DNA from: a virus
Taxonomy: Duplodnaviria; Heunggongvirae; Uroviricota; Caudoviricetes
Direction: 5' to 3' (one strand)
Length of the DNA stretch: 33,715 nucleotides
IMG/VR virus record: IMGVR_UViG_2534682164_000009
Part shown: positions 9,631 through 10,562 of the stretch, piece after piece
Layout of the letters: each line of letters begins with the position of its first letter
Position numbering within the stretch: the stretch's first letter is position 1
The notes under the pieces: model-generated
What the model saw: the letters and a program-made list of their open reading frames with translations, nothing else
Told to the model about the DNA's origin: nothing
Databases searched by the model: none
Translations under genes and position numbers: made by a program

Positions 9631-9880
9631 TGTCTCACAATTCAGACGGTTGACAGTTGTCTGTTTTGCGGGGAGTTTGTTAAAAGAAACTGGCATGGTG
9701 AATCCCCCTGTGCGGAGGGGCAATCAGCGAGTAGGTATATGGGATAATCGCGGATTCAGGTGCTGGTACTGAATTCACCGGGAGGCACCCGGCATCATGC
9801 AATGGCACATAGCGCCACTCTCCAGCCCTCTCCGGAGGGGCTTTTCTGTGCCGGATACATCACAGTTTCTGGAACCTTAG
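9631..9880 (+). repeat. module 1 of a paralogous pair (CTCACAATTCAG, TTGACAGTTG, hairpins, GGGAGG-ATG short ORF, terminator-like hairpin)
   Basis: Shares ordered motifs with module 2: CTCACAATTCAG…GTTGACAGTTG…CATGGTGAATCCCCCTG.GCGGAGGGG…CACCGGGAGGCACCCGGCA…CCTCTCCGGAGGGG+T-run; 27-codon ORF 9797-9880. Confidence 0.6.
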
Positions 9881-10097
9881 GTACTACAGTATCAGTCAGG
9901 GTGCTATATTTTCAGATGTGATGAAAGCCTGTCAGCAGGCAGGGCGTATCGGAAATGACCCAGTAGAGAAAACGTTGACTCAGATACCGGTGCTGAGTTA
10001 CCGGGAAACCGGCATCACATGACCGCTATCCTTCCAGGCCCATCCGCTCCGGTGGGCCTTTTTACTGCAGAAAACAGGTTCCCCGTTAAATGCTATG

Positions 10098-10381
10098 TTG
10101 CTCACAATTCAGTAAGTTGACAGTTGCCTGTCAGACTGGGCATTTGTTAAAAAAATTTCGCATGGTGAATCCCCCTGAGCGGAGGGGCGACTGGTGACGG
10201 TATAATCTCTGATTATCAAAACGAGAATGACGCGGGTTTAGTGGCACCGGGCTGAACTCACCGGGAGGCACCCGGCACCATGTGCATGATGATACAGATA
10301 CGCGGCTTTAGCCCCTCTCCGGAGGGGTTTTCTTGTGGGCAAAAAAAGCCCGCGCTGGGAGACGCGGGCGGCAAGGAATAA
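10098..10381 (+). repeat. module 2 of the paralogous pair
   Basis: Same motif order; palindrome TGACAG-TTGC-CTGTCA 10118-10133; TATAAT 10201-10206; hairpin CCCCTC-TCCG-GAGGGG + T-run 10312-10334; 33-codon ORF 10280-10381; reverse-strand terminator 10341-10369. Confidence 0.6.
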
Positions 10382-10562
10382 ACAATAAAACGTGAAGTAA
10401 TATTTCAGCTGGCGAATAATACCCCATAGTAATCACTCTGCGCAACTGCGCGGTCTTTTTCGAATTGCGGGCTGTCGTCTCTCTTCTGCCATTGTCCTGT
10501 AACTTCCGGACTTCAGCCCGCTCCTTATTTTACTCACAATATTATCCCGGCCGGGAGGATTC

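Follow-up and report, generated by a model that had tools for sequence, protein, structure and literature searches.

Probable tandem array of STnc100-family small-RNA genes at a lambdoid prophage 'moron' site

Genes and features of the region

Within the window – the whole 33,715-nt stretch of phage DNA analysed here – about 1 kb separates a cluster of phage tRNA genes from a nanS-p-type esterase gene and, as a preliminary description had remarked, this kilobase is devoid of long reading frames (none appears in the ORF list between 9589 and 10562). Our data indicate, with a probability of roughly 0.85, that the region is an array of small-RNA (sRNA) genes at the lambdoid prophage 'moron' site, comprising three plus-strand STnc100-family paralogues, arranged head-to-tail, and a single convergent sRNA gene on the − strand (Table 1). 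The array sits 3′ of Q/PR′ and the phage tRNAs and 5′ of the esterase and lysis genes, which is the late-region placement of the STnc100 family (Rfam RF02076, 'Gammaproteobacterial sRNA STnc100'); its upstream boundary is the intrinsic terminator that ends the tRNA cluster. A terminator scan of the region returned 11 terminator-like sites, where shuffled sequence would be expected to give 1.3. Despite the four RNA genes, RefSeq annotation of the kilobase is either empty or a pseudo 'hypothetical protein'.

Table 1. Features between the tRNA cluster and the esterase gene (positions are those of the window).
Feature	Position	Strand	Basis or remark
tRNA cluster (tRNA-Ile2-type 'Met-cat', Arg-tcg, Arg-tct)	9339-9588		
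Intrinsic terminator ending the tRNA cluster	9603-9627	+	7-bp stem, 6 GC pairs, then T7
Copy 1, conserved upstream block: TTAAAT-GT-CTCACAATTCAG, GTTGACAGTTGTCTG, TGTTAAAAG	9626-9692	+	promoter region or 5′ leader
Copy 1, candidate start P1	near 9637-9638		within CTCACAAT
Copy 1, candidate promoter P2	TTGTCT 9657-9662; TAAAAG 9681-9686		18-nt spacing, TG before TAAAAG; start G9693
STnc100 copy 1 (module 1), EcOnc05 type	9693-9848	+	Rfam RF02076, probe match, fold
Copy 1, 5′ multi-helix domain	9693-9800		
Copy 1, variable linker (putative seed)	9801-9823		
Copy 1, terminator hairpin and U-run	9824-9848		
27-codon ORF	9797-9880	+	not a gene; stop 9878-9880, past the terminator U-run
Diverged STnc100-like copy with upstream block	9858-10065	+	Rfam sub-threshold, R1, compensatory changes
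Diverged copy, 5′ domain	9916-10020		
Diverged copy, terminator	10036-10059		followed by T-run
Copy 3, conserved upstream block	10086-10159	+	near-identical to the 933W stx2B-STnc100 spacer block
STnc100 copy 3 (module 2)	10160-10336	+	Rfam RF02076, R1, homologues
Copy 3, 5′ domain	10160-10283		
Copy 3, variable linker	10284-10309		
Copy 3, terminator	10310-10336		
33-codon ORF	10280-10381	+	not a gene; stop 10379-10381, past the terminator U-run
Convergent sRNA gene, EcOnc08/21/42 type	~10534-10341	−	antisense to the esterase 5′ leader; 5′ end approximate
Terminator of the convergent gene	10369-10348, U7 to 10341	−	8 bp, 7 GC
Promoter-like site ATGCCA-17-GATAAT	10569-10541	−	promoter scan
Esterase leader: TATTTTACTCACAAT (third CTCACAAT), RBS GGGAGGA, then ATG 10563	10526-10562	+	

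The preliminary description had reported two diverged copies of one ordered set of motifs, and every motif is present where it had been placed: CTCACAATTCAG (9634-9645 and 10101-10112), GTTGACAGTTG (9649-9659 and 10116-10126), the palindrome TGACAG-TTGC-CTGTCA of module 2 (10118-10133), CATGGTGAATCCCCCTG.GCGGAGGGG (9694-9719 and 10161-10186), the CCGGGAGGCACCCGG hairpins of both modules, a terminator-like hairpin followed by a T-run in each (9824-9842 and 10310-10329) and a third occurrence of CTCACAAT at 10533-10540. The modules are true paralogues, with 70.7% identity across the whole unit, and the direct repeats between them (88 nt at 82% identity, 31 nt at 94%) are well beyond chance. Both are real, but the units number three: a diverged copy lying between them had been overlooked, as had the strong minus-strand terminator that forms part of the convergent RNA gene. 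The -10-like hexamers GATAAT (9743-9748) and TATAAT (10201-10206) exist, but a promoter role for them is not supported. They lie within the RNA as judged by both Rfam and the mapped 5′ end of PasD2, are missing from many homologues, and fall in the hypervariable hairpin 2, which is the least conserved hairpin and the second least conserved segment.

The suggestion that the modules are small transcription units, possibly sRNAs, has been supported: both belong to a small-RNA family, Rfam STnc100, whose members are also present here in Stx phages. Copy 1 matches RF02076 (a model of 206 positions with a gathering score of 47 bits) over its full length (9664-9853, model positions 1-206, 123.6 bits, E 7e-27), scores 109.9 bits against R1, a model built in this analysis, and has a minimum-free-energy fold that gives the Rfam architecture. 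It is 96.7% identical to the EcOnc05 unit of the O157 Sakai prophage Sp4, an RNA known to be Hfq-bound and confirmed by Northern blot (PMC4104026); all 35 bases of the Northern probe for EcOnc05 are matched, at 9722-9756, and published STnc_100 qPCR primers match copy 1 exactly. Copy 3 gives 161.0 bits against RF02076 (10131-10340, E 2e-36, model positions 1-206) and 98.3 bits against R1.

The counterpart of copy 3 is to be found in Stx phages. Its identity to the 933W unit is 78.8%, Stx2a phages match it at 86% identity over 99% of its length, and the unit that follows stx2B in L002 has a closely related linker. Gene order in 933W runs tRNAs, stxAB, STnc100, AsxR (convergent) and esterase, with the STnc100 element (EcOnc27/sRNA103) placed 75 nt 3′ of stx2B, which makes module 2 equivalent to the STnc100 copy that follows stxB. 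The proposal that the modules occupy the position of stxAB is thus correct for module 1, which together with the middle copy fills the stxAB slot, but not for module 2.

The middle copy is the most divergent of the three. Its score against RF02076 (9892-10065, 30.1 bits, E 2.4e-4) is below the gathering score; R1 recovers it at full length with 35.2 bits (E 7e-6). Compensatory changes are evident both in the closing helix (AUGUGAUG/CAUCACAU) and in hairpin 1 (GCCUG/CAGGC), and the copy is preceded by its own upstream block, consisting of CATCACAGTTTC and an extended -10-like TGcTATATT (9902-9910). The segment is retained in UTI89 and in several IMG/VR contigs. The copy may have diverged and still be functional, or it may be in decay.

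Arrays of this kind are not confined to the window. The search for Stx-phage homologues advocated at the outset found the element in 933W and in at least 300 phage records, a single one of which carries the annotation STnc100. Plus-strand copies number one per site in Sp4 and 933W, three in the window and in UTI89, and four in the IMG/VR contig L072; among 5426 complete E. coli genomes, 319 have a multi-copy layout like that of the window.

The convergent gene on the − strand is homologous to the EPEC RIL-seq sRNA 'E2348C_1409.E2348C_1408.IGR' and matches the EcOnc08/21/42 probe at 30 of 35 bases; its layout is that of Sakai Sp4, and its fold has a z-score of −2.24. On the opposite strand, the esterase leader overlaps the -10 and start of this gene. 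The leader belongs to repeat family D6 (87%) and is conserved in 933W, Sp4 and E2348/69; its likeness to the TATGTTGCTCACAAT block that precedes copy 3 suggests a possible promoter and start region. Between the sRNA pair and the esterase there is also a plus-strand hairpin with a T-run (CTGCGCAACTGCGCGG TCTTTTT, 10438-10460) that is kept in 933W, Sp4 and E2348/69. The invariant 5′ arm (UGAAUCCCCC) and the esterase RBS (GGGAGGAUUCA) form inverted repeats (I4 and I5), and we considered their pairing as a translational switch in cis or trans. We rejected it: when the first 24 nt of the unit were scanned for duplexes along the entire window, the esterase RBS site was outside the top 25.

Structure, conservation and 5′ ends of the units

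Each STnc100 unit has four parts: a conserved promoter or leader block at its upstream side, a conserved 5′ domain, a single-stranded linker, and a GC-rich hairpin with a U-run. The 5′ domain, of some 105-125 nt, consists of a closing helix (GCAUGGUG/CACCAUGC) that encloses three to four hairpins; the linker (20-30 nt) is different in each copy. Evidence for the structure comes from comparison of homologues, a check that the preliminary description had called for and which revealed compensatory changes in helices 1-3. In an alignment of 53 distinct copies fitted to the model, double changes affect 15 of 25 pairs (5/8 in helix 1, 3/5 in helix 2 and 7/7 in helix 3), and paired cells amount to 96.5% as against 40-51% when partners are slid; in a MAFFT alignment 6 of the 7 pairs of helix 3 show double changes. 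Covariation is uninformative for helix 4, which does not vary, and for the greater part of helices 1-2, which hardly do. In RNAalifold the invariant 5′ arm can alternatively pair with GGGAGG. Single-sequence folds are no more stable than those of shuffled sequences (z −0.48 and −1.03).

Conservation is distributed unevenly along the unit. Mean pairwise identity is 0.95 in the 5′ arm and 0.51 in the linker, figures that are biased upward because the homologues were gathered with a pattern requiring parts of the 5′ arm together with GGGAGGC. Linkers form 23 clusters that are shuffled among cores. A genome-wide scan with the pattern gave 63 matches, about half of which were chance occurrences in unrelated phyla; two of the chance matches, in Pantoea and in an uncultured enterobacterium, were removed after alignment.

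Where transcription begins is less clear than where it is predicted to end. Terminator hairpins with U-runs are present at all three copies, plus-strand promoter candidates are weak, and the mapped transcripts are those of homologues. The upstream block recurs before most units, regardless of the sequence further upstream, and holds weak promoter candidates at a fixed distance. In copy 3 it begins with TTAAAT, TGcTATGTT (10091-10099), CTCACAATTCAG and the palindrome, and continues with TTGCCT (10124-10129), 18 nt, and TAAAAA (10148-10153) preceded by TG. We infer P1 and P2 from such weak matches, since a consensus scan of the + strand of the region gave no sigma-70 site. The mapped 5′ end of PasD2 is the homologous G of GCAUGG. 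From this start the RNAs of modules 1 and 2 would measure 156 and 177 nt, and from a start near CTCACAAT about 211 and 232 nt; the reported Northern sizes of homologues (EcOnc05 ~222 nt, EcOnc27 235/247 nt) fit the CTCACAAT start better. Because these sizes conflict with a start at GCAUGG, both promoter and 5′ end can be placed only tentatively. The Rfam boundaries of STnc100, which leave the 5′ end undecided, probably take in promoter sequence.

Mode of action and competing explanations

Given these features, we envisage that sigma-70 RNA polymerase would transcribe each unit in lysogenic cells, as the literature on homologues supports, with the transcript predicted to end at the unit's own intrinsic terminator. 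Hfq would bind via the terminator and U-tail, as it does in near-identical homologues, and the RNA may then pair with mRNAs through the variable linker immediately 5′ of the terminator – a role suggested by the position of the PasD seed and by the cassette-like variability of linkers. With copy-specific linkers, the three copies would hold different target sets. Targets sought for the three linkers inside the window had best energies no better than those of shuffled seeds.

A first question is whether the units are independent genes. They could instead be cis elements or processing products of longer transcripts, arising from read-through of the tRNA operon in the lysogen or, once the prophage is induced, from the Q-antiterminated PR′ late transcript. 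The conserved structured domain would then aid processing or stability, or insulate the morons from the esterase and lysis genes. This would account for units that lie on the same strand as, and directly 3′ of, tRNAs, stx and late genes, for a + strand lacking a consensus promoter, and for Northern sizes of EcOnc05 and EcOnc27 that exceed the GCAUGG-start RNA by 60-70 nt; the related PasA is reportedly cut from a longer transcript, and the A/U-rich, single-stranded UGUUAAAAAA just 5′ of GCAUGG could be an RNase E site. However, a strong terminator stands between the tRNAs and copy 1, every copy ends in a terminator of its own, the upstream block stays with the unit whether it follows the tRNA terminator, stxB or another copy, RpoD ChIP-exo signal has been reported at Salmonella STnc100 promoters, and homologues are abundant in uninduced lysogens; we thus judge an origin by processing improbable. 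Far less probable still is a coding role, in which small proteins or leader peptides of 27 and 33 codons would be translated from the ATG after the GGGAGG hairpin and the 3′ hairpin would be an attenuator; leader-peptide genes were among the options in the preliminary description. GGGAGG does stand 11 nt before the ATG in both modules, and ribosome footprints have been found on some EDL933 STnc100 copies (coverage, as footprint over transcript reads, up to 3.2), but coverage of other EDL933 copies is as low as 0-0.1, the ATG makes up the closing helix's 3′ arm, GGGAGG lies within hairpin 4, and frames shift between copies that are 97% identical. Across 79 unique units the frames yield 48 unrelated peptides of 1-97 codons, and five units (Klebsiella, Enterobacter and Phytobacter copies among them) have no ATG.

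Granting that the units are sRNA genes, there is the question of which part does the work. In an sRNA that acts simply by base-pairing, one would not usually expect the 5′ domain to be more conserved than the putative seed, as it is here, and the domain might itself be the functional part – binding protein, acting as a sponge or mimicking the ribosome – with the linker as a neutral spacer. The 5′ arm GCAUGGUGAAUCC together with CACCGGGAGGCACCCGG is almost invariant from Escherichia to Klebsiella, Enterobacter, Phytobacter and PasD while the rest of the unit drifts or covaries, the domain combines an SD-like GGGAGG with a complementary C-rich tract, and STnc100 members are without an established function or direct target. 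Yet the estimate of conservation is inflated by the search pattern, the middle copy retains the fold having lost both invariant motifs, PasD chimeras in RIL-seq fall chiefly in the 3′ part beside the terminator, and the 5′ arm gave an unexceptional result when tested for pairing to the esterase RBS; on balance this division of labour seems to us a poor prospect. Somewhat better placed, although still doubtful, is the idea that the moron site is an expandable array in which a conserved 5′ scaffold is joined to interchangeable 'seed' cassettes, with linkers recombined among cores. Were it true, prophages would diversify host regulation by shuffling cassettes, and the near-invariant scaffold would have a function of its own, for example in stability or in loading Hfq or another protein. 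The published surveys consulted note the multiple copies and the relatedness of PasD to STnc100; tandem arrays and cassette shuffling are not described there.

Our preferred reading, an array of sRNA genes, is a real but ordinary finding, because the STnc100 sRNA has previously been catalogued in prophages of this kind and in Shiga-toxin phages. It has a curated family in Rfam and is labelled by pipelines such as Bakta, and both its stx2-adjacent position and its binding of Hfq were published in 2014. The result therefore carries little weight as a discovery; its value lies in annotation of the kilobase. SNPs in the STnc100 copy 3′ of stx2 are reported predictors of HUS, STnc100 RNA occurs in the outer-membrane vesicles of STEC, and stx-negative three-copy arrays such as that of ExPEC UTI89 could suit study of the family's function.

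Comparison with known systems

Modules 1 and 2 share with RF02076 both its helices and its prophage context, from Q and the tRNAs to the esterase and lysis genes, and differ from it in nothing of substance; the middle copy is sub-threshold. By way of reference, the 933W STnc100 scores 207.7 bits against the same model, and in that phage the equivalent tRNA-cluster terminator is annotated 5′ of stxA. The family includes EcOnc05, EcOnc06 and EcOnc27/sRNA103, with PasD as its sister. In eight Sakai prophages, Hfq-bound convergent sRNA pairs were described at the 'moron' site 3′ of PR′ by Tree et al. (2014, PMC4104026); EcOnc05, EcOnc06 and EcOnc27 (= sRNA103) are the plus-strand members of such pairs in O157 Sakai/EDL933 prophages (PMC4104026), the EcOnc27/AsxR pair lies just 3′ of stx2B (PMC4104026), and EcOnc05 and EcOnc27 are Hfq-crosslinked and Northern-positive (PMC4104026; PMC7873438). 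EDL933 has 11 transcribed STnc100 copies, with STnc100_4 Northern-positive (PMC5331693), and RpoD binds STnc100 promoters in Salmonella LT2 (PMC10794520).

The order around EcOnc05 in Sp4 – tRNAs, sRNA, convergent sRNA, esterase – is that of the window, but Sp4 and Sp5 hold one plus-strand copy each and the window three. Module 2 corresponds by position to EcOnc27 after stx2B, although its linker (CAUGAUGAUACAGAUACGCGG) differs from that of EcOnc27 (GUAUACAGAGAUUAGGCAUAUACC). The minus-strand gene shares with AsxR its location directly past the STnc100 terminator, but an identity with AsxR (RF02703) or AgvB (RF02702) was rejected: an Rfam search of 9300-10700 with E up to 10 matched neither, where 933W gives 88.1 bits for AsxR. 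AsxR and AgvB are anti-sRNAs of 51-60 nt with a conserved 3′ region of 42 nt, the convergent partner in the window has another terminator and another 5′ sequence, and RNAs of the EcOnc08/21/42 type are reported to be longer (~182-271 nt).

PasD1 and PasD2 of EPEC E2348/69 are Hfq-dependent RNAs of 172-173 nt with a seed right before the terminator (Pearl Mizrahi et al. 2021, PMC8550237) and share structural homology with STnc100 (Zhu, Shabalina and Storz 2026 preprint, bioRxiv 10.64898/2026.05.13.724894), a homology that scores 41.4 bits. They have in common with the modules the 5′ end GCAUGGUGAAUCC, hairpin 3, GGGAGG, the overall architecture and a location upstream of a sialate esterase gene. 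In contrast, global identity is only 55-59%, PasD is without hairpin 4, and its promoter block (TTGACT-18-TAAAAA) is without CTCACAAT; moreover, the PasD probe was not found in the window with up to 5 mismatches, the UGUGAG seed is absent and the linkers differ, such that the modules lack the BLAST-level similarity and seed of PasD members, and kinship is confined to the fold and the 5′ arm. Between the esterase and holin genes the PasA sequence is absent with up to 3 mismatches, and PasA/PasC at that location was discarded, there being no alignment past the 3′ end of the esterase. Finally, StxS (EcOnc15), the short PR′-tR′ transcript, is likewise an Hfq-binding sRNA of the Stx-phage late region, but it arises at PR′/tR′, upstream of the tRNAs, and is unrelated in sequence to the units described here.

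An array of STnc100-type units

The gap between the tRNA genes and the esterase gene (9589-10562) contains no long ORF, a point on which ORF calling confirms the preliminary description, and all the motifs listed there are present. The two modules it recognized are paralogous: two repeats are common to both, one of 88 nt (82% identity) and one of 31 nt (94%), and the full units are 70.7% identical. There is also a strong excess of terminator-like hairpins, with 11 found where shuffled sequence would give 1.3. The suggestion that they are sRNA genes was right. A Rfam scan at curated thresholds gave full-length matches to RF02076 ('Gammaproteobacterial sRNA STnc100', gathering score 47) at 9664-9853 for module 1 (123.6 bits) and at 10131-10340 for module 2 (161.0 bits). 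Module 1 and the EcOnc05 unit of Sakai prophage Sp4 share 96.7% identity, and the EcOnc05 Northern probe corresponds to window positions 9722-9756 at 35/35 bases. The modules, correctly observed, are an already catalogued element. The count of units needs amendment: two modules are real, yet the region comprises three plus-strand genes plus one convergent gene on the minus strand.

Features of the locus and its flanks, in window coordinates
Feature	Position	Strand	Remarks
DNA methyltransferase ORF	8240-9298		5' of the tRNA genes
Three phage tRNA genes	9339-9588		ARAGORN: Met-cat (ileZ type; tRNA-Ile in RefSeq), Arg-tcg, Arg-tct
Module 1 (STnc100 copy 1)	9693-9848	+	
Third, diverged STnc100-like copy	9858-10065	+	between the modules; alignment, purpose-built covariance model
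Module 2 (STnc100 copy 3)	10160-10336	+	
Convergent RNA gene, ~190 nt	10341-10534	-	terminator 10369-10348 plus U7; promoter-like site 10569-10541
Hairpin with T-run	10438-10460	+	interval between sRNA pair and esterase gene; conserved in 933W, Sp4, EPEC
Esterase ORF	start 10563		
Hairpin with T-run	12499-12530	+	esterase stop to holin start

Of 5426 complete E. coli genomes, 319 carry the multi-copy layout, UTI89, S88 and IHE3034 among them; the best of the 5426 matches 9300-10700 at 98.6% identity. RefSeq leaves the RNA genes at these loci unannotated, its sole entry there being a minus-strand pseudo 'hypothetical protein'; one GenBank phage record names STnc100 in its annotation. Hfq-bound convergent sRNA pairs have been described in the interval from the 'moron' to the conserved downstream ORF (Tree et al. 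2014, PMC4104026), in Sakai prophages Sp3, 4, 5, 9, 10, 11, 15 and 17 (PMC4104026); EcOnc27/AsxR, 3' of stx2B, is one such pair (PMC4104026; review PMC7873438). In EDL933, 11 STnc100 copies are transcribed, one confirmed by Northern blot (PMC5331693). RNA of the post-stx2 copy was detected in outer-membrane vesicles (PMC12370729) – the primers of that study match module 1 exactly – and SNPs within the same copy are reported predictors of HUS (PMC12711010). A 2026 preprint links the EPEC sRNAs PasD1 and PasD2 to STnc100 (10.64898/2026.05.13.724894).

The middle copy and the modular architecture of the units

The copy between the modules aligns with both at 55-59% identity and keeps their architecture. 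Its closing helix, AUGUGAUG/CAUCACAU, replaces the GCAUGGUG/CACCAUGC of the modules, and its hairpin 1 is GCCUG/CAGGC; both elements carry compensatory changes. Hairpin 3 is kept, hairpin 4 is CCGG-GAAA-CCGG, and there is a terminator of its own at 10036-10059. Against RF02076 this copy scores 30.1 bits, under the gathering score; against a purpose-built covariance model, trained on 28 homologous 5' domains, its score is 35.2 bits (E 7e-6), across the whole length of the model. Run unfiltered, the same model detects three copies in the region and no more. Sites differ in copy number: one in Sp4 and 933W, three in the window, and four in another viral contig, L072 (IMG/VR UViG_2861053794_000003), where tandem STnc100-type copies (2326-3350; 77-104 bits) occupy a 1.8-kb non-coding gap from tRNA-Met/Lys genes to a 681-aa esterase-like ORF. 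Two or three copies occur in E. albertii and several further contigs. Tandem arrays of one to four copies are one of two mildly new points.

The comparison set of homologues numbered 93 unique units, drawn from genomes of enterobacteria and from viral contigs; its sources include E. albertii, E. ruysiae, S. flexneri, Enterobacter, Phytobacter and Klebsiella spallanzanii. When 28 distinct 5' domains were aligned with MAFFT, two-sided changes appeared in 6 of the 7 pairs of hairpin 3, the other helices being almost invariant. The hairpins are conserved as paired structures, with compensatory changes, in a model-fitted alignment of 53 distinct copies: two-sided changes affect 15 of 25 pairs, and the fraction of paired cells is 96.5%, falling to 40-51% with partners slid 1-3 columns, in an alignment biased toward the model. 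Single-sequence folding energies are ordinary (z-scores -0.48 and -1.03). Mean pairwise identity is 0.95 in the 5' arm (overstated, as is that of GGGAGGC, since the collecting pattern demanded parts of the arm and this motif), 0.84 in hairpins 3-4, 0.70 in the terminator, 0.64 in hairpin 2 and 0.51 in the linker. Linkers fall into discrete types combined with differing cores. The second mildly new point is that linker cassettes appear to have been shuffled on a scaffold that is itself conserved.

Mode of action and transcription start

The best-supported reading is that the units would act as Hfq-dependent, trans-acting, base-pairing sRNAs. The analysis itself established the RNA family, the conservation of the fold, the terminators, the modular pattern of variability and the position in the genome; transcription in lysogens, Hfq binding and a PasD seed adjoining the terminator come from the literature on homologues. 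Each copy in the window would be expressed, its linker would serve as the seed, and the three copies would have different targets. That function centres instead on the scaffold, the conserved part, we regard as improbable. Similarly little weight goes to processing of the units out of read-through transcripts. Less probable still is that the units code for peptides. The 27- and 33-codon ORFs, offered earlier as possible leader peptides, open at the ATG that makes up the closing helix's 3' arm; they traverse the terminators, their stop codons lying past the U-runs. Among 79 unique homologous units the ATG is absent in five, and translating the remainder gives 48 unrelated peptides, 1-97 codons long, with frames differing even among 97%-identical copies; on these grounds we reject the ORFs as genes, and the leader-peptide reading falls.

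As to where the putative sRNAs begin, the -10-like hexamers GATAAT and TATAAT do not serve as the internal promoters once proposed: both lie inside hairpin 2 and are unconserved. A promoter scan returned zero sites on the plus strand. PasD2, whose 5' end was mapped by RNA-seq and Northern blot (172 nt), starts at the G of GCAUGGUGAAUCC; homology then gives candidate starts at 9693 and 10160, with TTGTCT-18-TAAAAG and TTGCCT-18-TAAAAA, a TG before each, as candidate promoters; the TTTGTTAAAA motif keeps a fixed distance across otherwise dissimilar upstream blocks. On Northern blots the nearest homologues run at ~222 nt (EcOnc05 of Sp4) and 235/247 nt (EcOnc27), sizes that fit better with candidate starts near the conserved CTCACAAT, at ~9638 and ~10105, which would yield RNAs of ~211 and ~232 nt. 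The edge of the conserved unit lies just 5' of CTCACAAT, independent of the preceding sequence. A third CTCACAAT, at 10533-10540, coincides on the other strand with the predicted start of the convergent RNA and lies within a block, TATTTTACTCACAAT, that resembles the upstream block of copy 3 and may mark the esterase promoter.

Neighbouring genes and the counterpart in 933W

The convergent gene, inside the region at issue and absent from the preliminary description, is antisense to the 5' leader of the esterase gene and has a strong predicted terminator. It is homologous to the EPEC RIL-seq sRNA E2348C_1409.E2348C_1408.IGR and to EcOnc08/21/42 of O157; identity with AsxR or AgvB was rejected, there being no Rfam match.

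The nanS-p-type esterase gene consists of two overlapping ORFs (10563-11276 and 11237-12415). In alignment with the 645-aa 933W protein they cover residues 1-248 and 240-640, a split that indicates a frameshift near 11237-11276; either a pseudogene or a sequencing error would account for it. The site of the hairpin beyond the esterase stop contains no PasA or PasC homologue. At 4259-4434 (+) the Rfam family of the sok antitoxin RNA (RF01794) is matched over its full length (112.4 bits), which points to a putative toxin-antitoxin locus of the hok/sok type elsewhere in the prophage.

In phage 933W, STnc100 (207.7 bits) begins 75 nt 3' of stx2B and is followed by AsxR, directly adjoining and in opposite orientation, after which comes the yjhS/nanS-p esterase gene. 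The claim that both modules occupy the position of stxAB therefore holds in part: module 1 and the inter-module piece lie in the stxAB slot, whereas module 2, given that the 933W unit is located between stx2B and the esterase gene, is the counterpart of the post-stxB copy.
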